From an uncultured virus (IMG/VR IMGVR_UViG_3300031760_000031) (Duplodnaviria; Heunggongvirae; Uroviricota; Caudoviricetes), in the IMG/VR virus record IMGVR_UViG_3300031760_000031: 20,000 nucleotides of DNA. One strand, 5' to 3'. The position numbers and the translations under genes are program-made. Below are positions 3,661 through 18,345 of this stretch, one piece after another. The number at the start of each line of letters is the position of its first letter. The stretch's first letter is position 1. The notes under the pieces are model-generated. The model did not search any database. It was not told the origin of the DNA and was given only the letters and a program-made list of their open reading frames with translations.

Positions 3661-5469
3661 TTAAATGCTGCTGGACTCAGAAGCAACCTTCAGAACGATT
3701 GCAGAATGAGGACGAACCAGAGCACCAGAGCAACGAGTTTCAATCAAATACTTCATCTTGTTGTAATCGATATCGAAATCGTCGAACAGAGATACTTCAC
3801 CACCCTTATTCATACCAACGTTGTAATCCTGCAGGTCAAGAGCTACTGCATAGACGTCTTCAGGCATAACGGTCGCAGGAACCTTAACGACTCTGTCAAC
3901 AGACATTGCGGAAGCGAGTTCGTTCATACCCTTATAAAGTCTCTGACCGATCTTGTCTTCCATTAACAGCATGTCAGAAACGATGTCGGTTCTGACAAAT
4001 GCAGTAACGTTACCAGAGCCCTGGTAATCATCAAGAGCCTTAACCATCTTGTTCTGAATAGCATGAGCTAAAGTCTCGGAGTCAGCAACAGTTACTTCAT
4101 AAGCCATAGCATACAGATTCTCTTCGGTATCCTTAACAACCGGAATGATGCACATTTCATCAATCTTATCTGCGTCCGGAGCTGTTCTTCCGTCACCAAA
4201 GATGTATGCGCGAGCTCTTTCTTCATCCAGCTTGATGCGCATTTCTTTCTTGATCCAAGCAACCATATCAATATCAGTAATGTCGATCTGATCATCACGA
4301 TCAAACTTCTGAAGCTTATAAATTGTAGTTGGATCTGCTTTTCTCTTTAAGAGCTTGAAGACTTCTTCAACTTTCTTAGTACCCTTAACATAACCTTTAG
4401 CCCTAGCTTCGGCCTGGGTAATATCTGCAAACATCATCTTAATCTTCGCAAATGGAGTCTTATGAACACCATTGTTAATAATATCAACCCATCCGTTTGG
4501 ATTGGTATTGACAAATGGAACTTCGTTGCCATGTACGTTCTTGTATTCAGGATACAGATAGTCTAAATTCGTCACACTGTGAACAAGAACTTCCTGCGGA
4601 TTTAAACCATGCTGTAAGAAAGCTTCCTTAACGGATCCATATCTCTTAGCATCCTGTAAAGCCGCGTATACTTCTTCTTCCATGCCATCATGCTGGAGAA
4701 CATCTTCGTTATCAAATGCGTTATGTTTCATTTCTTCATCCTCTTCTTCTTCATCGTTAGTGCCAGCAGAAGCAAGAGCTTCGCCGACTAAGTATTCACA
4801 AACTTTTCTCTGCTCAGGTGTCATACTATCAAGAACATCCTGCACAGTCATATCGTCTTTTTTATCAGCCATTTTGTCCTCTCCTTTATCTAATTCTTTT
4901 TCTTCTGAAGTATCTGCATGCTCAAGTGTCTCTGATTCTTTTTCTTCGCTAGTCTTTTCCGAATCTTCAACAATTTCGATAAAATCAGAATCATCACTAT
5001 GCTCAAGAACGAGATCTTCTCCTGTATAAATTTCAGCGCCAATAGCTACAGGATCTTCATCAGCGCTATGAGCCATAACATACTCAATGGATGCTCCTGG
5101 ATTTGCACCGGCAAGTACCAGGCTAACCTCACGGATAATACCATGCAAAACATCTCCATCAGCAGTTTGTTTCAATCCATTTGCATAAATTGACAAACTC
5201 CCAATATCTCCATGCTGCATAATAGTTTTGATCCTTTGAGATTTTGGAAGGTCATTAAAATAGCCATACGCTTTAACACCGGCATCCACATTCTTTAGAA
5301 CTGCGTGACCAAGCACATTATCCGGGTCGTTGTGCTGATGATTCCAGACTAGTGGAACCGTCATTCCGTCACAATCCTTAAAAGCGTTATGACGAATAGT
5401 CCTTCCATCGGAGCATTTCAAATCATTTTTCGTGGCCCAACCCCAAAAATCATAGTCTTTCTTAGCCAT
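3661..5469 (-). CDS. Prohead protease-scaffold-major capsid fusion protein (HK97-type)
   Basis: The N-terminal ~130 aa carry prohead-protease-like motifs (VPLVWNHQH, VLGHAVL, SLSIYAN, IREVSLVLAGANPGA). An acidic linker follows, then a ~300-aa capsid domain ending FDDFDIDYNKMKYLIETRCSGALVRPHSAIVL. Directly follows the portal. Confidence 0.88.
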   Translation of the reverse strand: MAKKDYDFWGWATKNDLKCSDGRTIRHNAFKDCDGMTVPLVWNHQHNDPDNVLGHAVLKNVDAGVKAYGYFNDLPKSQRIKTIMQHGDIGSLSIYANGLKQTADGDVLHGIIREVSLVLAGANPGASIEYVMAHSADEDPVAIGAEIYTGEDLVLEHSDDSDFIEIVEDSEKTSEEKESETLEHADTSEEKELDKGEDKMADKKDDMTVQDVLDSMTPEQRKVCEYLVGEALASAGTNDEEEEDEEMKHNAFDNEDVLQHDGMEEEVYAALQDAKRYGSVKEAFLQHGLNPQEVLVHSVTNLDYLYPEYKNVHGNEVPFVNTNPNGWVDIINNGVHKTPFAKIKMMFADITQAEARAKGYVKGTKKVEEVFKLLKRKADPTTIYKLQKFDRDDQIDITDIDMVAWIKKEMRIKLDEERARAYIFGDGRTAPDADKIDEMCIIPVVKDTEENLYAMAYEVTVADSETLAHAIQNKMVKALDDYQGSGNVTAFVRTDIVSDMLLMEDKIGQRLYKGMNELASAMSVDRVVKVPATVMPEDVYAVALDLQDYNVGMNKGGEVSLFDDFDIDYNKMKYLIETRCSGALVRPHSAIVLKVASESSSI

Positions 5470-5489: not shown

Positions 5490-6845
5490 TTAAATTTCAG
5501 ACAATTTCAATTCACTCAAGCTCTTATCTTCAACCGTTTCCGCTGTTAATTGATCTTCTTGAGGATTTGTATTTTCTCCCTCAGAAGGTACTTCACTCAT
5601 TTGATTCGCTTCGTTCGGATCAACAACGTTCGGGAACTGGCTTCCGTTTGACTGGTTAATGTTCTTGTTGCTAAGTTCATTAGCTCTAGGATCATCAACA
5701 GGCAACAATCCAACAACTTGTCTAAATTCATTCGAAGACATAATCTCATTACGAGTAAACTTATCTGCAAGTTCAGCAAGTTTAGATGTTGGAACAAGCT
5801 TGAATGGATCTCTAAAGAACGCTATTGATTGCTTTTGTGTTATTGCGGTCTTTGTAAGAAACTTTCGTCTCATTTCGTCTGCGATAGCCGAAACAATTGG
5901 CTCAACGGTCCGAGAATAATAGTTCATCATAGTCTGTTCATCTGCAGAACCATCTAAAATACCAGTAGTGATCCCTAACTGCCCGTATACGATGTTTGTC
6001 AGGTATTCAATACGTGCTAATAAATTGTTCTCCAAAGGACGATTCAACTGTGTGATTTTCTCTGTCGCATCAACATATGCAATACCGTATTTGCTTCCAG
6101 TAAGCTGCATTTCAATGTCTTTGCGACGCTGCTCAGCCTGTTGCCTCTTTGTTTCAGTTTTAACTAAATATGGAAGTTGGATAATCATATCTAACTTCCC
6201 AGATCCACTTTGTTCATCAACGACGTCCATCAACGTTAAAGTTCTGATAAGTCTCTGTAGCGTTGAGTTTGGTTCATTCATAATTGAATAAAGAGGATTT
6301 TCAACGATTGCAACGTTCTTCTTAGCAAACCAAATTTCTTGATGCCTACCAGTTCGATCGTTGTAAACGTTAATCTTTACATTGTCAGGCGCCCATTCTA
6401 TAATCTTCCCAACCCGTAAAGACTGTATATCAAAAGATCCCTTATCGGGATCAATTGATGTATCGATTGGAACAATCGCTATAGTTCCTTCATCAAACAT
6501 TGACATGACTGCATCTTGCATAAATGCCCTAGCAGTTTGGTCTTTGTTTGCAGAAATTGTTAAGCAATCGTTCAATGCCGAATCCATCTCGCTAATAAAG
6601 TACCCGTTTTTATCTAATTTCACATGCTTGAATTTAATCTGGGCAACGTCTAATGCGATTCGATTATAGATAGATGTGACTATCGTTCGTTCGTTACCTC
6701 GAGATAATCTATAGCGATATGGATTATATGATGAATAGGAAATATCAGTGCGATCATCATCGTATTTCCAATAATAATCCTGAGTTGGATCCCTATTCAT
6801 GAAGGCGTTCCATGCGTGGATTAGCCTATCGCTGAATTTTGGCAT
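5490..6845 (-). CDS. Portal protein
   Basis: 451 aa with IYNRIALDVA, ILDGSA and NEIMSSNEFRQVVGL (HK97-portal-like C-terminus). GGAGG RBS. Directly upstream of protease-capsid. Confidence 0.88.
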   Translation of the reverse strand: MPKFSDRLIHAWNAFMNRDPTQDYYWKYDDDRTDISYSSYNPYRYRLSRGNERTIVTSIYNRIALDVAQIKFKHVKLDKNGYFISEMDSALNDCLTISANKDQTARAFMQDAVMSMFDEGTIAIVPIDTSIDPDKGSFDIQSLRVGKIIEWAPDNVKINVYNDRTGRHQEIWFAKKNVAIVENPLYSIMNEPNSTLQRLIRTLTLMDVVDEQSGSGKLDMIIQLPYLVKTETKRQQAEQRRKDIEMQLTGSKYGIAYVDATEKITQLNRPLENNLLARIEYLTNIVYGQLGITTGILDGSADEQTMMNYYSRTVEPIVSAIADEMRRKFLTKTAITQKQSIAFFRDPFKLVPTSKLAELADKFTRNEIMSSNEFRQVVGLLPVDDPRANELSNKNINQSNGSQFPNVVDPNEANQMSEVPSEGENTNPQEDQLTAETVEDKSLSELKLSEI

Positions 6846-6859
6846 TAGAACTCAACCTC

Positions 6860-7516
6860 CTATCCTAGGTAATTCTTTACTGCATCTATAGATACATTCA
6901 TAGATTTTGCAATATCAGCATAGTTTTTACCTTCGTTTTTCATTTCTGTTGCGCGTTTTCTTTGCTTATCAGAAAGTCCTTTATTTCCGTTATTATTGTT
7001 ATTGTTATTCTTATTCTTATTGTTGTTATTATTGCTATTATTATTGTTATCGCCAATCATAGTATCTACCAATGCATTCATGAATTTCTTTCCTGCATCG
7101 GCAGCAGCTGGAACTACAACTTTCTCAACCATAAGGTTCATAAATTGTTCACCCTTAGAAATAGGCTTTGGATCAAGATTATTAACTTGATTTCGTATAT
7201 CAATGGCGTCTTTTTCAAGGCGCATTCTTTGAATGTACTTTTCAAGTTGTTTATCAGTCATCTGTTTGATGTCCTTATTTCTTGGAGACTTCATTTTACG
7301 AGCTTCGGCTGCAGCTTTTAATTGTTTAACTTTTTTATCATAAGCTTTTCTCTCGGCTCTACTTCTCTTGATATAGTTACCATTCTCATCAGTACGGTAA
7401 CGACGTTTACCCTCGGCGGTCAGAGTTCCATCCGGATTCTGAAAGCGCCTAACACCCCATTTCATATTTAGGATCCCGTAATGGTAAAGCTCGTCTTTGT
7501 TTAAAAAATACGCCAT
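6860..7516 (-). CDS. LxH-leader protein (HYG..MKWGVRR family) with poly-Asn linker and C-terminal HTH
   Basis: N-terminus DELYHYGILNMKWGVRRFQNPDGTLTAEGKRRY. C-terminus QRKRATEMKNEGKNYADIAKSMNVSIDAVKNYL has an HTH pattern. AGGAGG RBS. Confidence 0.8.
   Translation of the reverse strand: MAYFLNKDELYHYGILNMKWGVRRFQNPDGTLTAEGKRRYRTDENGNYIKRSRAERKAYDKKVKQLKAAAEARKMKSPRNKDIKQMTDKQLEKYIQRMRLEKDAIDIRNQVNNLDPKPISKGEQFMNLMVEKVVVPAAADAGKKFMNALVDTMIGDNNNNSNNNNNKNKNNNNNNNGNKGLSDKQRKRATEMKNEGKNYADIAKSMNVSIDAVKNYLG
6981..7050 (-). repeat. Imperfect (AAY)n coding microsatellite (poly-Asn tract)
   Basis: Encodes DNNNNSNNNNNKNKNNNNNNNGNK. Confidence 0.85.
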
Positions 7517-7550
7517 TTTGAAATCCTCCTATTCTACTTTTTTATGTTTT

Positions 7551-7670
7551 TCATTTTCTTTCAGTAAGAGTTCCGTCAGGATTCTGATAATGCTTAATAA
7601 TCCACTTCTGTCCTAAGATTCCGTGATGATAAAACTCATCATTATTTCTTTTTCGACTGTGATTTACCAT
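7551..7670 (-). CDS. 39-aa mini-ORF or remnant consisting almost only of the leader motif
   Basis: Manual translation: MVNHSRKRNNDEFYHHGILGQKWIIKHYQNPDGTLTERK*. ATG at 7670 (alternative 7676) with GGTGA upstream. Overlaps the 3' end of the neighbouring gene in another frame. Could be a pseudogene. Confidence 0.55.
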   Translation of the reverse strand: MVNHSRKRNNDEFYHHGILGQKWIIKHYQNPDGTLTERK

Positions 7671-8235
7671 ACGCATAATCACCGATATCAATTAACCCGT
7701 ACAACGCAACATCTGCCATGTTTGCAAAAATACCGGCAACCGCTGCACTAGCGCGATCGGCACCTTTTGCAGTCAGGTCGTCATATACTTTTGTTCCAAA
7801 ACCTCCTGCCAATGCGGACTTAAGGAACTGTTTACCAAGATGCTGAGTCTGGATTTTCTTATTTGTCTCTTTACTCTGCCAACTATAATTTGCCTCTGCT
7901 GCAGCAGTCCTAGCTTCACCCAATGTCTTTTTATAATCGCTCTTTAAAGACTTGCGCTCCTCATCGGTTTTGGCTTTCTTTTTCTTTTCTTTGTAAATTC
8001 CTTTAATTTCCTTTTTATCTTGCCTGTATCCCTTATTAAGATTTACAGCAAGTCTTTGACCTAATGATGTATTAGTTAATGCTCTACCAATATTGTTCAG
8101 AACTTTATCAGTTCTATAACGTTCTTTGCCTTCAGACGTTAATGTTCCATCTTGATTCTGAAAACGACGAATACCCCATTTCTGGCCCAATACACCGTAA
8201 TGCATTAATTCATCTTTGTTGAGATAGTAAGCCAT
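7642..8235 (-). CDS. LxH-leader protein (HYG..QKWGIRR family), Lys-rich
   Basis: Begins MAYYLNKDELMHYGVLGQKWGIRRFQNQDGTLTSEGKERY. The ATG at 8235 has a GGAGG RBS; the ORF track starts at 8250. Confidence 0.8.
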   Translation of the reverse strand: MAYYLNKDELMHYGVLGQKWGIRRFQNQDGTLTSEGKERYRTDKVLNNIGRALTNTSLGQRLAVNLNKGYRQDKKEIKGIYKEKKKKAKTDEERKSLKSDYKKTLGEARTAAAEANYSWQSKETNKKIQTQHLGKQFLKSALAGGFGTKVYDDLTAKGADRASAAVAGIFANMADVALYGLIDIGDYAYGKSQSKKK

Positions 8236-8249
8236 AATAATACCCTCCA

Positions 8250-8978
8250 TTATCTACGATCTTTTAACTTATTAGCGTCTTCAGTTGCGAACTTCTCTGG
8301 ATTATCCAAATATTGCCTATAAGCTTTTTGTAATTCTTTTCCGCCTTTATCAGCAACTTCTTTATTTTGAACAATCTCTAAGAAGTCAGTCGAATATCGA
8401 TTATATTTTCTTGCTGCGTCCATTTTGGAATTAATATCCTCTAGTTTTGTCTTATACTGTCCATTAATGAACTGAGCACCAGCATAAGTTGACTCCGGAG
8501 CGAACTTAGCGATCTTACGAGAGTATTTGTTGATCAACGACTGAGCTTTATGAATTTTAGCCTCATTCTTTGAAGTACTGTTTTGCATTTTTTCTGCCTT
8601 TGCAGAAAGTTTTCCTGCTTTAGCAGATAGCTTCTGAGACTTAATTTCTAATTTAGTTCTCTTCTTATCACTAATAAGCCAGCCATTAACGGCTTTGTTG
8701 TGTAGCTTAGCAGCTTTGTTCTGAAGTTTGTTTGCCTTAGCCAACTTCTTTTCTGCTCTGTAGTCTTTTCCAGCATTTCTATCGATACGCTTCTGATATT
8801 TATCGATCTTACGCTGCTGTTTATCGATTTTACCAACTAATTTCGCATACCGTTTTTTACCCTCTTCTGTCAGAGAGCCATCTTCATTTTGGTATCTACG
8901 AATACCCCATTTCATTCCTTTAATGCCAGAATGGTATAATTCATAATTACCGCAAGACGTCATATAAAATTCCTGCAT
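8250..8978 (-). CDS. LxH-leader protein (HSG..MKWGIRR family), basic coiled-coil
   Basis: ELYHSGIKGMKWGIRRYQNEDGSLTEEGKKRY followed by a K/A-rich helical region. GAGGAGG RBS. Confidence 0.8.
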   Translation of the reverse strand: MQEFYMTSCGNYELYHSGIKGMKWGIRRYQNEDGSLTEEGKKRYAKLVGKIDKQQRKIDKYQKRIDRNAGKDYRAEKKLAKANKLQNKAAKLHNKAVNGWLISDKKRTKLEIKSQKLSAKAGKLSAKAEKMQNSTSKNEAKIHKAQSLINKYSRKIAKFAPESTYAGAQFINGQYKTKLEDINSKMDAARKYNRYSTDFLEIVQNKEVADKGGKELQKAYRQYLDNPEKFATEDANKLKDRR

Positions 8979-8990
8979 GCATACCTCCTC

Positions 8991-9019
8991 AAATAAAAAA
9001 GTCTCTCTGACGGAGACTT
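8991..9019 (-). terminator. Rho-independent terminator after the toxin-immunity pair
   Basis: Minus-strand RNA reads AAGUCUC-CGUCAGA-GAGACUU-UUUUAUUU, starting at the stop codon of 9018..9281. Confidence 0.65.
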
Positions 9020-9281
9020 AACTGTTTGAATATAACTTAAGTTTTTCTTGTGGAATAATTTTTCCATTAATAAATTCTTTTCTAGAAATCATTAAAGGAA
9101 AAAATACGCAAACGCTTTTGTCTTTTTTATTAACACCTATCAAACTGTCATTAACATTCAAGTTTTCATGTAATCTATAGTCAAATACAAAATATGAATC
9201 ATATTCGATTCCGTTAACTATTTTCTTACCCTTAGCAGTTTTAAATTCCGATGCCAATTTAATTGCTTCTTTTAATTCCAT
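9018..9281 (-). CDS. Putative immunity protein for the upstream papain-fold toxin
   Basis: 87 aa with its own AAAGGAG RBS, 14 nt after the toxin stop. It is the only cassette gene without the LxH leader. The pattern (helix LKEAIKLA, E.DSYFVF, IGVNKKDKSV) is reminiscent of YrhB/Imm35-like immunity proteins. Confidence 0.55.
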   Translation of the reverse strand: MELKEAIKLASEFKTAKGKKIVNGIEYDSYFVFDYRLHENLNVNDSLIGVNKKDKSVCVFFPLMISRKEFINGKIIPQEKLKLYSNS

Positions 9282-9295
9282 ATTTTCTCCTTTAA

Positions 9296-11020
9296 CTATC
9301 TAAACTTCTTTGCATACTCTAAATCGTCTATCCAATCAGTCTCGATATGCTGATCTTCTAATACGCCTACAATATCTGGAATAATTCTCTCTAAATCGTC
9401 ATAAGTAACGTATGTAGACCATCCTCCAATTGGGTAAATCGGTTCATTACGCTTCAATTCCCCGGTTTTAATCTTTTCGGTGTAGTCATTATACATATTC
9501 ATATAAACCCAAGCAGCCTGTTCCATAAGGTCATTCTCGACTTTACCGCTATTAGCTATTTGAGCAGGACATGTAACATATGACATCCTAGATTTGTCGA
9601 TTTCCAAATTGTCAGTTCGCATTGTATAAATAGCACCACTATCAATGTCAATATCAGACATTTCTTTAGTGTAATTCTTATTTAGCGCTTGGCTTCTCGA
9701 AATGTACTCTTCAATATCAGCTTCATGATTTGAATTTCCAGAGTATTTTTCAGTAGGCTGAGTATCGATAAAATGAACTTCACCGTTTACGATCTCATAA
9801 TTGAAAATATGCCCACCATATGGATACCAACGGATTACTGTAAATCCACTTGAATCTTCGCCATTTGATTCAGCAAGTAGTTGCTTTTTAAGTTCGTCTG
9901 CTAATTGCTTAGACAATTGACGATCTTTTTTCTCGTCTACAAATGGTTCATAATTTTGGTCTAGAGAATTATAAATGTTTGAGAAATCAGTAGCAATGAA
10001 CTCGCCACCTTTATAAAAGCTTTCGATTTCTTCATTCGTCATCCCACCATAAATATCAGGAATTGCTTTAACATCAAGCCCTTTCAATCTTAAGTCGTAT
10101 GAAATTGAACATGAATAACAATTTGTCTGATAATAGGCATCTTCTTCATAGTTTGGATTAATCGTATCTCTATTTTGCTTTGGAGATAGTTTCTCTTTAA
10201 TTTGTCTAAATAAAGGCTCTTTCGTCTTTTGATCCGGCTTATTAGTAGGCTGATCGATTGTATCGACAGACTTTTTAGACAAATTTGAAATAAAATTCGA
10301 AATGTTTTTATAAACATCAGTTTTTCTAATGTCTCTTAATGCATGACGCGCTATTTTTGTAGCATGATAAGCAATAAATCTTAATGCTTTATCTGGTCCG
10401 ACAATAAGTCCTTCTGATTTTTTGTTATTATTTTTTGACAGATCACCGAATATGTTTCTAGCATTTACAAACTTGTCATGTCTTTCATTTGTTTCTGCTA
10501 ATCCTCTTTTTATAGAAGCTTTTGCATTCGTAACAAAAGTCGTAACTCGATCCTTTAAATTATTAACTTTGGAAATACTAGAAGCTACTTTATTTTGGAC
10601 TTTTTTACTCTTTTCTTTTGCTGTCTTTTTAACTGCAGTAAGGTTGACACTTAAATTCTTATTCTTACTAATAAAAGATTCAGCTTTTTTATAAAAATCA
10701 CTTACAGGTTTATTTGTTTCTTTCTTTGCTGACTCTTTTTTATTTATACCGCTTAAAAAGTTTCGTCCAAGCTGCTTATAGTCTGTTCTTCCGCCAAAGT
10801 TTTTGGCTGTAGAATTTAAAAAGTAGCCTAACGATTTAAATTTGTTGGCTACTTGTGATGCTTTCATATAAGTGTCATATTCTTTTTTTGTATAGAAATA
10901 CCTGTACTTAGGTTTCGAAGTCGACCCAAGATTTATTCGCTGATAGTATTTGTGTTTTTCTTTTTCAGCTCCTAATTTAAGGCCCCAGTGGTATAGCTCT
11001 TTACTTTTTAGATACTCCAT
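9296..11020 (-). CDS. LxH-leader protein with papain-fold (Tox-PL-like) Cys-His-Asp toxin domain
   Basis: Leader ELYHWG...HKYYQRI...KYRYFY and a long basic linker, then INPNY...TNCYSCSISYDLRLKGLDVKAIP (Cys 10118-10120), WYPYGGHIFNYEIVNGEVHFIDTQ (His 9809-9811, Asp 9764-9766) and RTDNLEID. Confidence 0.78.
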   Translation of the reverse strand: MEYLKSKELYHWGLKLGAEKEKHKYYQRINLGSTSKPKYRYFYTKKEYDTYMKASQVANKFKSLGYFLNSTAKNFGGRTDYKQLGRNFLSGINKKESAKKETNKPVSDFYKKAESFISKNKNLSVNLTAVKKTAKEKSKKVQNKVASSISKVNNLKDRVTTFVTNAKASIKRGLAETNERHDKFVNARNIFGDLSKNNNKKSEGLIVGPDKALRFIAYHATKIARHALRDIRKTDVYKNISNFISNLSKKSVDTIDQPTNKPDQKTKEPLFRQIKEKLSPKQNRDTINPNYEEDAYYQTNCYSCSISYDLRLKGLDVKAIPDIYGGMTNEEIESFYKGGEFIATDFSNIYNSLDQNYEPFVDEKKDRQLSKQLADELKKQLLAESNGEDSSGFTVIRWYPYGGHIFNYEIVNGEVHFIDTQPTEKYSGNSNHEADIEEYISRSQALNKNYTKEMSDIDIDSGAIYTMRTDNLEIDKSRMSYVTCPAQIANSGKVENDLMEQAAWVYMNMYNDYTEKIKTGELKRNEPIYPIGGWSTYVTYDDLERIIPDIVGVLEDQHIETDWIDDLEYAKKFR

Positions 11021-11032
11021 TTTGATAATCTC

Positions 11033-11467
11033 CTATCCTAAAGTAGTAGTATGACTAGTAACCTTAATACGACTCTTCTTTGACTTTTTCTTCTTTGATA
11101 GCTTTTGAATAAAACTAGCTCCTTTTGAAGCTGCTCTTTCAACGCCACGTTCAATCTTTCCTTTTGTCTTAAATACAGTAACTGAGCCATCGCTCGATTT
11201 AACCTGGATTTTATTTGAAAGCCAACTGTTACCATTACTAGTAACTTCTTTGTATCTAGTAATACCGCCGTTTCTTTCAACTTTTACATATTCTTTTGTT
11301 GTTGGACGCAAATCAGTAGTTGGAGTTCTAAACTGATTCGTCATTCCTTTGTAAATATAAATCCACTTACCATTTCTCAAAAATTTGTCAATATATTTAT
11401 GATTGGTCCATGAAGAACCTTTAGCCGCATGGGCTAATTCTTTTGATCTATATAATTCATATCCCAT
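11033..11467 (-). CDS. LxH-leader basic protein (HKY...GKWIYIY type)
   Basis: SKELAHAAKGSSWTNHKYIDKFLRNGKWIYIY shares its leader type with the toxin gene (SKELYH...HKY...YRYFY). AGGAGG RBS. Confidence 0.75.
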   Translation of the reverse strand: MGYELYRSKELAHAAKGSSWTNHKYIDKFLRNGKWIYIYKGMTNQFRTPTTDLRPTTKEYVKVERNGGITRYKEVTSNGNSWLSNKIQVKSSDGSVTVFKTKGKIERGVERAASKGASFIQKLSKKKKSKKSRIKVTSHTTTLG

Positions 11468-11506
11468 AGTGGCCTCCTGTTATATAATGTTATAGAGGTG
11501 AATAAT

Positions 11507-11827
11507 ATGAAAATTGCTCAGATTTACTGTCCTAGTTGTGGTGGTTCAATTAAAGGTGACTTAACAAAAGATAGTGTAATCTGTCCTTTTTGTGGAACGC
11601 AGCTTGCTATCGATCATGAAAAGAAAGAAATTACTATAAACCAGAATATTAATAAGAATATTTCTATTAGTAAGAATCAAACAAAACGAATAATTGATGA
11701 AGCTGAAATAATTCGTGCAAAAACAGAAAATACAAAAGCAAAATCAAATGCAATCTCTGAAATAGCAGCAATTATAGCCTTACTAATCATAATTCTGTTG
11801 TCATTTTTAATGTCGATTATAGCTTAA
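11507..11827 (+). CDS. Zn-ribbon protein with C-terminal transmembrane helix (moron-like, opposite strand)
   Basis: Contains CPSCGG and CPFCG knuckles and a C-terminal IAAIIALLIIILLSFLMSIIA. GAGGTG RBS precedes ATG 11507 (the track starts at GTG 11498). TATAAT at 11483-11488. Fills the gap between terL and the cassette without overlap. Confidence 0.75.
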   Translation: MKIAQIYCPSCGGSIKGDLTKDSVICPFCGTQLAIDHEKKEITINQNINKNISISKNQTKRIIDEAEIIRAKTENTKAKSNAISEIAAIIALLIIILLSFLMSIIA

Positions 11828-11832
11828 TATAT

Positions 11833-13596
11833 TTAAAAACTATCCTTATTATGCTTAAACGCTACAAACGCATCCAGCATGGCTGCGACACAGTCTATCT
11901 TCTGTTCTGAACGTTTCTTATAGAGTTTACGATTTCCGTTCGTATCTTCTAGAGTAATACAATTACCCATGGCGAAATTCATGATTTGCTCGTCAAATAA
12001 CAAAAGTCTCTCTTCAGAGAGCTTTTTTAATTCTCCTAATGGAACCGATTCTGTTCTAGCACCCTGAATTACTTTCTCTACACCAAAAGGTCCTCGTTCT
12101 GTTGCCCAACGTTCTACAAATTCTTTTGCATTATATGGGTCATAACCAAAGCAATTTACATCATACTGATGCATATCGATAAACCGATCAAGATCCTCAT
12201 AGACATTCATCATATCGAGGATCGCTCCGTCCATTACAACAAGACTTCCTTCACGGATAAACTCATCGTATTTGCTCTTTAAAGCAGAAGGTAATTTCTG
12301 ATAAGTAAAAGCGCTGATATAGTTTCTTGTCTTAATGCCAAAAGATCCACCACGTAGAGGGAACATGAAAGTAAATGCACAAAAGTCATCCCCTTGAGAT
12401 AAATCACCACCCATAGCGCATTGCATTTTGTCGAATGACCGATATGGATGCGTCAGCGTTTCCTCATATGGGAAGTAATAAGTATAACCTTCAAGCGGAA
12501 TACCAAATCTCTTTGCAAGAATATCATTCCTATTTGCCGGAGATTTCTCAGCTCTTTCCTTGTCTAATTGATAAGTCTCATAGCTAACCGTGATTCCTAT
12601 GTTTGGATTTGCTTTAACCCACATAGCTGGGTTTTCTACTTCCTCGATCGAATCTAAACGATAATACCAAATCGATACTCTTGGGTTTATATAGTCACCC
12701 TTAAGTATGTCAATAAGCTCCATTTTGATTGTGTCGCCAGGACCATTACGAACTGTGCCCTCTGAAGAAGTCGCCACGATCAAATAGTCATTTACCTCTT
12801 CAATACCACCTTGCTCCTTAGTACAAGACTGCTCTATTGCACCAATAACGTCTTCCCTGGTATCACCAGAGAGCCATTCATCGACAGTAGCAATCTTAAC
12901 TCGATAACCCTGAAGCTTGTCTCGGCTCATTGGTTTGACTTCGATTGTGGATCCAGTAATAAAGTTCTGAATACCCTTCTTGGTAGAGGCTAGCTTAACT
13001 CGATCTGCTCGATTACCTGTTGTGTTTTGAAGTGAACCATATGTCATAAATTTAAACATAGGTCCTTTAGATCTGTTAATTGCTGTTCGTAATGGCGAAA
13101 GTACTTCATCCGCTTGAGCCATTGTTGGAGCTGTGACTGTTTGTCCATTTGAACTACGATCACAAATTAAAAAATATGCTTGCAAGAATGCAGCATACAT
13201 TGATTTTGCGGCGCCTCTGGCAATAATTAAAAATTGCTTTGTGATTAACCGTTTTTTAAACATTTTATTAACATAATGCCCACCTCGACCATTTGGATCT
13301 GGGATGTATACACTACGTTCAATAAAGTAATACCATCCGAAGATTTCTTCCGCCCAAAGTTTAAATGATTCAAGCATTTTCACATCGCCGCCATTAGTGA
13401 GAGTTAACTCATTCTCGCAAAAAGCGACAAAACCATTCATTGCATCTTTGTCGTAATAAACTCCGGGGTTTTTAATAAGCTCATCAATACGGTTCATTTC
13501 CATAGCGATGTACTTATTAATTGGTGTCTCTCCTCTCATTACAGATTCTCTAAACTGGCCGTAATATATCGGTACGGCAGTATTAGATAGTGACAT
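11833..13596 (-). CDS. terL: Terminase large subunit
   Basis: 587 aa with Walker A IARGAAKS, Walker B IATVDE, WVKANPNIG, nuclease motif GGDLSQGDDF, GYDPYNA and C-terminal KIDCVAAMLDA. Confidence 0.93.
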   Translation of the reverse strand: MSLSNTAVPIYYGQFRESVMRGETPINKYIAMEMNRIDELIKNPGVYYDKDAMNGFVAFCENELTLTNGGDVKMLESFKLWAEEIFGWYYFIERSVYIPDPNGRGGHYVNKMFKKRLITKQFLIIARGAAKSMYAAFLQAYFLICDRSSNGQTVTAPTMAQADEVLSPLRTAINRSKGPMFKFMTYGSLQNTTGNRADRVKLASTKKGIQNFITGSTIEVKPMSRDKLQGYRVKIATVDEWLSGDTREDVIGAIEQSCTKEQGGIEEVNDYLIVATSSEGTVRNGPGDTIKMELIDILKGDYINPRVSIWYYRLDSIEEVENPAMWVKANPNIGITVSYETYQLDKERAEKSPANRNDILAKRFGIPLEGYTYYFPYEETLTHPYRSFDKMQCAMGGDLSQGDDFCAFTFMFPLRGGSFGIKTRNYISAFTYQKLPSALKSKYDEFIREGSLVVMDGAILDMMNVYEDLDRFIDMHQYDVNCFGYDPYNAKEFVERWATERGPFGVEKVIQGARTESVPLGELKKLSEERLLLFDEQIMNFAMGNCITLEDTNGNRKLYKKRSEQKIDCVAAMLDAFVAFKHNKDSF

Positions 13597-15363: not shown

Positions 15364-18345
15364 TTACTCATTTCCTTTTAATGCTTTTGAAATTGTACTA
15401 GCAGACATTCCTAATGCTGCAGCAATTTCTGCGTTTGTTTTTCCGCTTTGAGACATTGCTTTAGCTCTACTTATCATTGCTGGTGTCATTGTTTTTCTTG
15501 AACTCGGAGTAGCTCTATCCCTTAGTGCATCCGTATCCGTATGGTCCAGAACTTTTCTTAAAGTGTTTGCATGGATCGCACCAGCCTGAATTGCTTCCCA
15601 CATTTTATCCGTGATTACAATCTCATTCCTCTGAGCCCCTACTCTCGTCCGGGCCTTAGTCAACTCTACCTGTCTAAGTTTCTTCTTGTCTTCCTTCTTT
15701 ATTGATGGATTACTTTGAACCTTAGCTTTAAATTCTAGTGTTGCGATAACTTGAGCTTGTCTTTCTCTAGGCTTATTTTTTGTGGAGAGGTCCAGTTGGT
15801 TCTGTATCTCTGTTACCTCTTTAGCATAGGTTTTTGCTGCTTTACTACTATACTCTATGCCTTTGGTATCATAACTTAATTTTCTTGCCTGATTAGCCAT
15901 CGCCTTCATAGTATTTGCATAGGAGGCATATAGTTGTTCCATTGGACTGTTGTAATCTGAGATAAGAGTTCTTGCATCATCTGTTTCTGCCATCTTGGTC
16001 GATTGCGTTTTACGAACTTTCTCAACTACAGTAGTTACACCGGTTTTCTTATTGGTTTTTTCAACAGTGTAATAAGCTTTTGGATCAGTCTTATAAAGCA
16101 ATGCACCTTCTGGCTTTGTTGGATCATAATCAGAACGACCTTTAATATTAATTCTTGGTTGTCCTTTTCTCCTTGGCACATCTTCTTCCGATTTAGCCAT
16201 TGAGATCAACGTAGATGCGCCCATTGATTCTTTGCCGTCTTTTGTTATATGAAGCTGGTATTTTCTTTTGAGCTTTTCAATCTCGTTTTGTGCATAACTA
16301 GACTGGTAATCAAGTTTATGCTTTTCAGCATCAATAACAACCATTGAATGGCGAACTGCTTGCGCAAGTTCATCTTCGCTGGCACCTTTAATTGTCATGT
16401 CTGAGATCAAGTTAGAAATTCTACCCATTTCATTCTGAGTGTTCTTCATAACTTTAAATTCAAGACCTGCTTTATTAAAGTAATGCTTATCACCATTTTT
16501 ATCTTCGTAAGTCTTACTTGGATCACAACCATATTTTTCTTTTGGATCAAATCCTTCAAGACCCTTTAATGATTTGCCATTGTTGTTCTTAATCCTTATA
16601 GTGCTGTTTGTTGGAATAACCATAACTGTATCGCCATCAAAATCAGCTCCAGAAAGTTTTTCCGCAACAGATGCATTAATGCCAACAGCATCTCTAGAAT
16701 TCTTTCCAATCATGGCAATGCCATCTTTTTGCTTATTGTTAACAGTTAAAATTGGAATTTCAAATTGGCCACCATGAGGATAACGAACTAAAGCAACTTG
16801 CTCACCATCTTTATAATTTGGAGCATAAATTTCGTTATTTTTCATTGATGGTATTGGAAGAATTACCTGAAATTTTTGTCTTGGTAGAGCAGCAGCGGTT
16901 AAATGAACTGCAGATGAATCACAGTCGCTGGCAAAAGAGTCAAGATAGTATTTCTTGATTGTATTATTCTCAAGGCTCATAATATCTTTTAGCTCTTGCT
17001 GCTTTTCAAGAATGGCTAAATTTAACTGTCTCTTAGCAAGCTGTACGCTTTGTTTTGATAAGAACTGCGCAGAAAGAGTATCCTTCCAGTTGTCCCAGTC
17101 ACCTTCATCCGCTCTTCGATTTAAAAGATTCAGATGCCGATTTCCATCCTTATCATAATAGTAAGTTTGTCCACCTTGCTCTTTATCTTTTATTAACGAA
17201 CCAAACGGATTATCGCGGTCAATTTCTTTTGTAATTTTATCTCTCTTTACGTCTTTTAATACTTCAAGTTTAGGAACATCTCTATGTTTATTGGTATTAA
17301 ATATAACGTCTATACCAGGAGGAAATGAGCTTTGATCAATGGCATAAGCAGCCATACCCTTGATATATTTTTCGTCATCAACAAGAATCCTTACTTGAGC
17401 ATAATTCTTTTCACCAAGAGAGAGATCCGGTACATTCCTACGGAGTTCTATCAAACCATCTTTATCTTTTCCACCATCTTCAGCATAACGAATCATTAGC
17501 CTACTCGAATCCATAGATTCTGGATATTCGAATTTCTTCTTAAAACCATCAATACCATTGTTGATGGCTTCATAATCCTTTATTGCCTTTATATGTTCGT
17601 AAGTATAAAAATCTTTCCAAGTAGCATCAGGCATAGCTACAACATTCATTGTTGTCTGTCTTGATCCGCTTGGATCTGTAATGTTAGGAACTCTTCCTCC
17701 AAACGTTTTATAACCTTCACCTTCAAGAATATAAACTGCATCGTCAAGTTTAGTTCTTGTAACATTAAGTTCTGTTTCTACGCCAGGACCAATATCAATC
17801 ATAGCCTTTGGATCATCTTTGGCTAGTTCGTTAAGGCGCTCTTTTAAAAAATCGGCGGTCTTTAAAGTTACTTCAATATTTGCTTTTCTTGATGGATTTA
17901 ATAACGATCTAACACTAGACTCATTTTGTAAACCCATCTTTCTAGCAATCTCAGAAGGACCATAACCAGCATCTCGAAGTGCTTCTGCACGATTAATCTT
18001 ATCCATTCTATCGAGATTTGAAGCAAGAGTAATTGCATGACGATATTCTGTAGTAGACATTTTTAATATCTTTGCTACAGCTGTCTCACCTTTAAATGTT
18101 TTACCATAATCCGGATTCTTGATCTTTTCGCCATTCTTAATAATGTATTCTTCATTATCTGTGTAAGTTGGTTTCTGTTTTCTTAACTGCGCTACAAAAG
18201 AGAGAAAGTCTCCAGAATGTTGAAATGGTGAATCTCCAGATCCCCAAGGATATCTTCCAGAACCAGGAGTTCCTTTAATATGGTCTGTTCCATAATGCAT
18301 TAAAAAATCGTCAAGTGACGGTTTCTCATTAATCATAAATATCAA
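15364..18345 (-). CDS. Single-subunit two-barrel (DPBB) RNA polymerase, QDE-1/YonO-like, with N- and C-terminal HTH motifs
   Basis: Catalytic-type LSGADFDGDTVMV (DFDGD at 16630-16644), upstream ALVRYPH and YAQVRI...YIKGMA (compare QIR..KG, RNP and DxDGD in cellular RdRP-family enzymes), and downstream MGRISN and VIDAEKH. Start is TTG 18345 or ATG 18336. Confidence 0.8.
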   Translation of the reverse strand: MIFMINEKPSLDDFLMHYGTDHIKGTPGSGRYPWGSGDSPFQHSGDFLSFVAQLRKQKPTYTDNEEYIIKNGEKIKNPDYGKTFKGETAVAKILKMSTTEYRHAITLASNLDRMDKINRAEALRDAGYGPSEIARKMGLQNESSVRSLLNPSRKANIEVTLKTADFLKERLNELAKDDPKAMIDIGPGVETELNVTRTKLDDAVYILEGEGYKTFGGRVPNITDPSGSRQTTMNVVAMPDATWKDFYTYEHIKAIKDYEAINNGIDGFKKKFEYPESMDSSRLMIRYAEDGGKDKDGLIELRRNVPDLSLGEKNYAQVRILVDDEKYIKGMAAYAIDQSSFPPGIDVIFNTNKHRDVPKLEVLKDVKRDKITKEIDRDNPFGSLIKDKEQGGQTYYYDKDGNRHLNLLNRRADEGDWDNWKDTLSAQFLSKQSVQLAKRQLNLAILEKQQELKDIMSLENNTIKKYYLDSFASDCDSSAVHLTAAALPRQKFQVILPIPSMKNNEIYAPNYKDGEQVALVRYPHGGQFEIPILTVNNKQKDGIAMIGKNSRDAVGINASVAEKLSGADFDGDTVMVIPTNSTIRIKNNNGKSLKGLEGFDPKEKYGCDPSKTYEDKNGDKHYFNKAGLEFKVMKNTQNEMGRISNLISDMTIKGASEDELAQAVRHSMVVIDAEKHKLDYQSSYAQNEIEKLKRKYQLHITKDGKESMGASTLISMAKSEEDVPRRKGQPRINIKGRSDYDPTKPEGALLYKTDPKAYYTVEKTNKKTGVTTVVEKVRKTQSTKMAETDDARTLISDYNSPMEQLYASYANTMKAMANQARKLSYDTKGIEYSSKAAKTYAKEVTEIQNQLDLSTKNKPRERQAQVIATLEFKAKVQSNPSIKKEDKKKLRQVELTKARTRVGAQRNEIVITDKMWEAIQAGAIHANTLRKVLDHTDTDALRDRATPSSRKTMTPAMISRAKAMSQSGKTNAEIAAALGMSASTISKALKGNE

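Follow-up and report, generated by a model that had tools for sequence, protein, structure and literature searches.

Papain-fold enzymes of the Tox-PL1 family in phage head modules and their immunity partner have already been published, and Imm35 was described as tied specifically to Tox-PL1 and as a likely peptidase inhibitor (PMC3482391). Toxins fused to MuF have been proposed to be head-borne peptidases of moderate toxicity that steer the infection or oppose defence (PMC5576092, PMC9503650), and in phage T4 the internal proteins IPI-III and Alt are loaded by capsid targeting sequences, which gp21 cuts at L/I-X-E (PMC9026906). Here, we analyse a 20,000-nucleotide stretch of an uncultured virus of the Caudoviricetes (IMG/VR record IMGVR_UViG_3300031760_000031), called the window, which forms the final 20 kb of a phage record of 80,664 bases. 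It encodes a 574-amino-acid (aa) Tox-PL1 protein (P0001) with an N-terminal Leu-x-His (LxH) leader, followed by an 87-aa partner (P0002). We consider the chances slightly better than even that the pair is a head-loaded, MuF-independent effector with its cognate inhibitor, as found in a supercluster of phages around 1706, Oengus and several actinophages. The pair consists of the following features:

9296..11020, minus strand: 574-aa Tox-PL1 protein with leader, basic linker, papain-fold domain and acidic tail (open reading frame (ORF), Pfam, model)
10859..11008, minus strand: leader of type B (residues 5-54), its LxH at 9-11 and the H11 codon at 10988-10990, probably the signal for head loading and the site of the head protease (profile match)
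10211..10855, minus strand: Lys-rich, poorly conserved linker, residues 56-270, net charge +28 (alignment)
9551..10210, minus strand: Tox-PL1 / Gln_amidase domain, residues 271-490 (Pfam, alignment, model)
10118-10120, 9809-9811, 9764-9766 and 9758-9760, minus strand: codons of the motif residues C301, H404, D419 and Q421
9299..9550, minus strand: acidic C-terminal tail, residues 491-574, retained in close orthologues only
9018..9281, minus strand: 87-aa partner, likely the cognate inhibitor, modelled as a helix with a three-strand sheet, weakly PepSY/Imm35-like (family profile, model)

Both ORFs are separated by 14 nt and each is preceded by an AGGAG ribosome site. The locus resembles the MuF-fused Tox-PL1/Imm35 pair in domain family, in the NC-H-DxQ motif, in its position in the head module marked by terminase and portal, and in the small downstream partner. 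It differs from this pair in that i) the enzyme carries an LxH leader and no MuF, ii) the partner stays below the Imm35 cut-off and iii) cis fusions exist in which the partner precedes the leader (PMC3482391). The layout with a conserved leader, a variable linker, a C-terminal enzyme and a small gene downstream is that of a polymorphic toxin. It is shared with the MuF toxins of temperate phages, which also have a conserved N-terminus, a variable C-terminal enzyme, a small downstream ORF and a proposed delivery from the head. In contrast to these, the loading module is a different one, common to many non-enzymatic proteins and an RNA-polymerase-like protein, and exchange mostly takes place within one toxin family (PMC5576092).

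Judged by its sequence and its structural model, the 574-aa protein is a papain-fold enzyme of the Tox-PL1 family whose Cys-His-Asp motif is intact. The motifs named in a preliminary description, made from the letters alone, are borne out as NCYSC (N300, C301), GHIFN (H404) and IDTQ (D419, Q421), and membership in the family is confirmed by a match of PF15644 to residues 299-421 (E 1.3e-7, 33.1 bits against a cut-off of 24.1). Among 87 aligned non-redundant relatives, C301, H404 and Q421 are each retained in 87/87 and D419 in 84/87, the remaining three having Glu. The rows kept needed a profile match and a partner; since most relatives had been fetched by the non-catalytic LRxRGYDV stretch, conservation of the triad is not built into this sample. 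In the domain model (predicted local distance difference test, pLDDT, 87.9) the Cys opens a helix and His and Asp lie on neighbouring strands, which corresponds to the canonical secondary-structure placement. A fold search of 48,161 chains returned SpvD as the best match (Z 11.0, root-mean-square deviation (rmsd) 2.9, 151 aligned), followed by OspI (Z 8.8, rmsd 4.4, 152 aligned) and other papain-fold enzymes, with StbD at Z 6.4. The Tox-PL1 profile also matches OspI (E 0.0028), and Foldseek gave no match to the domain at E <= 0.001. The claimed independence from MuF stands as well, as Phage_Mu_F did not match the 574-aa protein and did match the control protein of a Bacteroides phage. Single-protein scans of viral contigs gave no relatives of the domain, and four 30-residue matches to the partner in these scans were judged to be chance.

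Shigella OspI (3b21, 3w30) and Salmonella SpvD (5lq7) are the closest solved sequences or folds, at 11-17% identity; unlike the 574-aa protein, they are secreted effectors with eukaryotic targets and without phage context. StbD of Citrobacter rodentium is a papain-fold toxin with the immunity protein StbI, acts inside bacteria and cleaves GyrB and ParE, but it belongs to the C39 family and relies on contact-dependent delivery, in which it differs from the 574-aa protein (bioRxiv 10.64898/2026.05.07.723447). OspI has been described as a glutamine deamidase, and for members of PF15644 roles as releasing peptidases or as toxins are considered possible (PMC10318531). By analogy to OspI, the enzyme would most likely deamidate one specific bacterial protein or cleave it to a limited extent, and its effect would be moderate rather than lethal, serving host take-over or counter-defence.

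The second element of the pair can be followed through the same relatives. According to a profile search, the genes following Tox-PL1 relatives constitute one family that includes P0002. A partner stands directly after 58 of 69 leader-bearing Tox-PL1 genes (five lack it, six are cut off or have no candidate), after 41/60 of the other, MuF-fused or stand-alone ones and after 10/14 with open 5' ends; these counts cover 143 distinct Tox-PL1 proteins and the profile was iterated on those very genes. A profile of 80 members less than 25% identical to P0002 recovers P0002 among 428 genome frames with E 2.9e-12 (next best 0.43), the seed that gathered these members having included P0002. In 80 loci fetched by their terminase alone, all 14 partner matches fell into 11 of the 12 Tox-PL1 loci and none into the other 68. 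Searching 16,537 ORFs, we obtained 113 distinct partner matches, 109 directly downstream of Tox-PL1, one just upstream (L094) and three fused to it. Thus 113/113 are adjacent or fused, and the proposed tie between small gene and domain holds for co-occurrence and also for co-divergence: genomes with two enzymes (L011, L013, L066) have two different partners, and enzyme and partner distances correlate with r 0.55 (highest of 999 shuffles 0.08), as adjacency and kinship alone would lead one to expect of any neighbouring genes. Three divergent relatives fuse the partner to the enzyme in an architecture that looks zymogen-like:

L243, 2630-3763: partner-Tox-PL1 fusion
L112, 722-2638: partner-Tox-PL1 fusion
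L154, 5257-6711: partner-Tox-PL1 fusion

In these fusions the order is partner, LxH site, leader and Tox-PL1, and no partner gene follows downstream. Their partner parts are 32-51% alike, so they do not go back to one assembly error; a single origin is still possible. The 87-aa gene itself is leaderless, as had been stated, since the leader profile gives no match on its product. The further claim that the partner remains unpackaged is unproven, because these three relatives attach it to the tagged enzyme.

The proposed identity of the partner as Imm35/YrhB could not be upheld: PF15567 has no match in the genome, including P0002. In the family, Imm35 matches 1/87 members (E 0.0066, not shown to pass the cut-off) and PepSY weakly matches 7/87. 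Aligning the partner profile to 11 Imm35 sequences with hhalign gave a weak match (E 6.5e-4, probability 27.5%; reversed control E 0.57). One member of the partner family bridges to Imm35 at E 4.8e-5, and our A3 profile finds Tox-PL1 beside true Imm35 genes in 10/11 loci (partly overlapping); the iterated partner profile drew in no Imm35 sequences. P0002 has no match in Pfam or PHROG and only a weak NusB match in NCBIfam, ESM Atlas returned unnamed clusters under 0.9, and tblastn against 50,697 phage records gave no relatives. The partner model (pLDDT 94.9) has weak fold matches (Z 5.5 to 3.4) with CD1622, YpeB and YpmB on top and the peptidase propeptides 3nqz (Z 3.7) and 4k90 (Z 3.4) lower down; StbI is not among the 50 listed matches. 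We take CD1622, YpeB, YpmB and the propeptides to be PepSY folds. By analogy, we read the partner as working like Imm35, with remote kinship possible, and not as a scored member of that family; very probably it binds and inhibits the enzyme.

For the route into the head, the surrounding genes on the minus strand have to be considered:

11833..13596, minus strand: large subunit of terminase, bordering the cargo block on its upstream side (family searches)
11033..11467, minus strand: 144-aa gene with a type-B LxH leader as in the 574-aa protein, likely cargo (leader profile)
6860..8978, minus strand: three genes (242, 202 and 218 aa) with type-A LxH / DUF7211 leaders, likely cargo (Pfam, leader profile)
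5490..6845, minus strand: portal protein with an LxH close to the N-terminus (family searches)
3661..5469, minus strand: fusion of an S78-like prohead protease with an HK97-type capsid protein, probably the enzyme that cuts LxH (family searches)
4570..5079, minus strand: acidic linker of this fusion, residues 131-300, with 7 hydrophobic-x-His sites, likely maturation cleavage sites
15364-18345, minus strand: RNA-polymerase-like protein (PHROG 4291; family search)

As predicted, the pair lies in the head module, between terminase (11833-13596) and portal (5490-6845). The LxH of the leader was likewise seen correctly, at residues 9-11, and the leader proves to be a second type (LxH...HKY...Y.Y) and not Pfam DUF7211 (PF23847), which matches the three downstream genes and not the 574-aa protein. 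This type-B leader is identical in 34/51 and 36/51 positions in orthologues whose linkers agree in 48/170 and 33/172, and H11 is the one LxH histidine among nine histidines of P0001. In the acidic linkers of 44 dereplicated protease-capsid fusions, 265/291 His (91%) have L, I, V, M or F two positions before, against a background of 21%, with about six sites per protein and A, S, G, N or D as the next residue in 91%. Elsewhere, hydrophobic-x-His accounts for 54/183 histidines in the capsid domain, 142/257 in the protease domain and 49/203 in terminase, and portals have a His at the matching N-terminal position in 25/43. Such a density of sites in the linker, which is kept across the supercluster, suggests that the head protease has His at P1; this would be unusual. 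Since LxH precedes 91% of the linker histidines in the 44 relatives, LxH is probably the site of this protease. No solved structure was found that fixes the position of the mature N-terminus of the capsid fusion.

Besides, several observations connect the leaders to the virion. Long cargo proteins repeat LxH between their modules, and cargo sequences behind the leader are modestly depleted of it (96 against 128 expected in 267 sequences; terminase 45 against 48.5). In phage 1706, two leaders of type A, a weak one of type B and five LxH sites are found in orf7, whose product is annotated as a structural protein. The RNA-polymerase-like protein bears LxH-G near its N-terminus, likewise in 8/8 dereplicated homologues among those listed, and may, from this motif, be packaged in the virion as well; 1706 orf75 has no structural annotation. 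Head loading thus appears likely from indirect lines, namely the linker LxH, the annotation of 1706 orf7 and the MuF fusion of the same domain, and it is quite probable that leader proteins reside inside the head. As in the T4 internal proteins, a short N-terminal tag precedes basic, variable cargo, and its hydrophobic-x-P1 motif recurs in scaffold-like regions that otherwise vary; the T4 effectors are ejected with the DNA. In comparison with T4, P1 would be His here and not Glu, protease and HK97-type capsid protein form one fusion, the conserved motif stands behind the presumed cut, and T4 has no inhibitor partner (PMC9026906).

The window encodes, by family searches, the RNA-polymerase-like gene, an HNH nuclease, connector, terminase, portal, protease-capsid fusion and tail genes, a gene set that has been described for the 1706/Oengus/actinophage supercluster (bioRxiv 10.1101/842583). 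The name Heliusvirales was not applied, as the accessible text of PMC11283538 does not mention the RNA polymerase and the gene set is described in bioRxiv 10.1101/842583. The protease-capsid fusion has 244 matches in the 50,697 phage records, in phages of Arthrobacter, Gordonia, Streptomyces, Lactococcus (1706), Rhodococcus and Faecalibacterium (Oengus); among named prophages, that of Eubacterium ramulus is closest (terminase 71%). The whole block is present at 56 terminase loci, which reduce to 21 non-redundant ones; leader genes occur in 21/21 of these and Tox-PL1 in 6/21, hence the enzyme-partner pair is accessory. Among isolates, the Sporto-type domain is found at E <= 1e-12 in six records from five phages (Sporto, Lewando, Secretariat, Mossy, Schwartz33). 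Sporto gp8/gp9 and Secretariat gp15/gp16 have the same placement between terminase and portal and consist of DUF7211 leader, Tox-PL1 and partner; in contrast to the window their leader is type A, and Secretariat gp15 adds a GNAT module. They are annotated as amidase / acetyltransferase and hypothetical, and their records describe no function.

In near relatives (terminase identical in 514-535 of 587 positions), whole cassettes have been gained, lost and swapped. The orthologous pair is present in L013 (50% and 52%) together with a leaderless pair, and L014 and L015 have a leaderless pair alone. L011 combines a leaderless pair with a protein that has a type-B leader (35/50) but a distant domain (59/182), and whose partner is 58% like the other partner of L011 and 28% like P0002. 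A swap of the C-terminal domain at this locus was therefore found in one within-family case, enzyme and partner behind a kept leader in L011; a swap to other toxin classes is rare. In 78 leader-bearing representatives without Tox-PL1 (at least 215 aa, one or two per cluster, from 226), the only enzyme matches were two weak ones, to ADP-ribosyltransferase and 2H phosphoesterase, both below cut-off, next to one CW_7 repeat. The leaderless 330-aa Tox-PL1 with intact triad and its 79-aa partner stand directly after terminase in L010-L015 (conserved 53-62%), and the N-terminal part of this enzyme is similar to the stretch before the domain in the L011 leader protein, which is what one would expect of an orphan cassette. 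The same domain occurs on MuF in Bacteroides and Arthrobacter phages and as stand-alone protein with an annotated immunity gene in mycobacteriophages.

Taken together as a mechanism, the enzyme would be synthesized late and kept silent in the producing cell by its partner. The LxH leader would load it into the prohead, where the phage head protease would trim the leader during maturation; ejected with the DNA, the enzyme would then modify a bacterial host protein. Its action after ejection is inferred. A further step, in which a His-specific head protease combined with LxH loading acts as a maturation switch, so that a partner-silenced enzyme is freed by the LxH cut (the partner stands before LxH in some phages) and injected with other tagged cargo including the RNA polymerase, is conceivable but doubtful.

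Several points speak against a head-loaded effector with an inhibitor. We found no published experiments on any family member. The prevailing residues after LxH in cargo leaders (H 218, Y 166, F 45, W 18; S 27) differ from the small ones of the linker, P3 and P1 agreeing and the following residue not, and for this reason cargo leaders may be bound yet uncut. The conserved part of the leader comes after LxH and would remain on the protein, in contrast to the T4 tag; loading and cutting may therefore be separate from the linker sites. L010-L015 keep a leaderless Tox-PL1 with its own partner, so the enzyme can persist without a tag. Exchange between toxin classes is rare, the likeness of the partner to known inhibitors is weak (best Z 5.5; Imm35 E 6.5e-4, probability 27.5%), and the co-divergence is of the kind that adjacent genes show anyway. 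As to 1706 orf7, its structural label only presumably goes back to virion proteomics.

The leaderless pairs of L010-L015, together with stand-alone pairs outside the supercluster, e.g. in mycobacteriophage Piro94, would fit a pair that works in the cell where it is made and is not carried by virions; it might shut off the host late in infection, compete with co-infecting phages or form a toxin-antitoxin type module. We regard this as unlikely, as most enzymes of the supercluster carry a leader common to unrelated late proteins, LxH is depleted behind it as in proteins that meet the head protease, and the MuF fusion of the same domain points to heads. Quite unlikely is an accessory peptidase that processes head or cargo proteins and has no host target, with the partner as a propeptide-like regulator. 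Such a role was proposed for MuF-fused Tox-PL1 (PMC3482391), and both the propeptides 3nqz and 4k90 among the closest folds of the partner and the zymogen-like look of the cis fusions agree with it. However, the phage already encodes an S78-like protease of its own, 15/21 relatives lack the pair, it was not found among the head genes tested in 1706 and ReqiPepy6 either, and pairs that are duplicated, swapped and 20-30% alike fit conflict better than assembly.

If the enzyme is head-loaded, the small protein might still be a chaperone for folding or loading, or an activator, rather than an inhibitor. The three divergent relatives with the partner at the enzyme's N-terminus and its failure to exceed the Imm35 cut-off could be read in this way, but as it also follows MuF-fused and stand-alone Tox-PL1 (41/60), it tracks the catalytic domain and not the loading route. 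Considering also the remote link to Imm35, itself proposed as a peptidase inhibitor (PMC3482391), we give this version a low probability. Finally, the nearest solved folds are effectors of animal pathogens, which would suggest a eukaryotic target as for OspI or SpvD. Solved structures are biased to such effectors, a dedicated partner implies a bacterial target, there is no secretion route and the pair is found in soil actinophages, so that this explanation is hardly credible.

New here are the LxH enrichment in the protease-capsid linker and the leader-bearing 1706 protein annotated as structural. We found no description of an LxH-loaded system in the literature searched; the primary papers on 1706 and ReqiPepy6 were not covered and may note the motif, and the supplements of PMC3482391 and PMC5576092, outside the search, may list some of these proteins. 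If a head-loaded effector is correct, it would provide a function for DUF7211 and its sister leader, present in 21/21 non-redundant relatives, add to MuF and the T4 tag a third way in which effectors can enter phage heads, and indicate a head protease with cleavage behind histidine. With Sporto, Lewando, Secretariat, Mossy and Schwartz33, a phage Tox-PL1 pair can for the first time be studied in culture, and the long-open question of how head-borne toxins act after infection becomes directly testable.

Some features around the pair are of minor importance. The terminator placed after the partner gene by the preliminary description is not established:

8999..9019, minus strand: weak terminator-like hairpin with a T run (folding)

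The hairpin 9019-8999 is present, but has -8.3 kcal/mol and z -1.0, with 24/200 shuffles as good, and has no counterpart after the orthologous gene in L013; the raw count of 19/87 partner genes against 3/87 control genes is confounded by phage type. A promoter-like site at 9996-9968 (10/12) was disregarded, as 54 such sites were found against 66 expected.

In other phages, Tox-PL1 also ends polyproteins of 1000-1375 aa with 2-4 DUF7211 motifs:

L119, 2470-6501: DUF7211-Tox-PL1 polyprotein
L160, 2287-6414: DUF7211-Tox-PL1 polyprotein
L123, 3130-6144: DUF7211-Tox-PL1 polyprotein
L126, 1571-4657: DUF7211-Tox-PL1 polyprotein

In mycobacteriophage Piro94 (L007 1313-2317), a protein annotated as VIP2-like toxin matches PF15644 only and no ADP-ribosyltransferase family; from these matches the VIP2-like label looks wrong for these cluster members. 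In Bacteroides phage jmh72_hp (L008 2110-3777), the gene after MuF-Tox-PL1 is not a same-strand partner; it encodes 89 aa, lies on the opposite strand and is convergent.

Two other parts of the window differ from close relatives. One gene lies between terminase and cargo block:

11498-11827, plus strand: 109-aa zinc-ribbon protein with a C-terminal hydrophobic stretch

This gene is not on the maps of L011, L013 and L014, which covered the plus strand only. Furthermore, six genes, among them some for Gly/Asn-rich and Gln-rich proteins, precede the portal as a block in close relatives and are missing from the window:

L011, 8800-11402: six-gene pre-portal block
L013, 17016-19609: six-gene pre-portal block
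L014, 7412-10006: six-gene pre-portal block

In the window, the DUF7211 protein at 6860-7516 (minus strand) has an Asn-rich tract and a C-terminal helix-turn-helix and could possibly be an injected DNA-binding protein.

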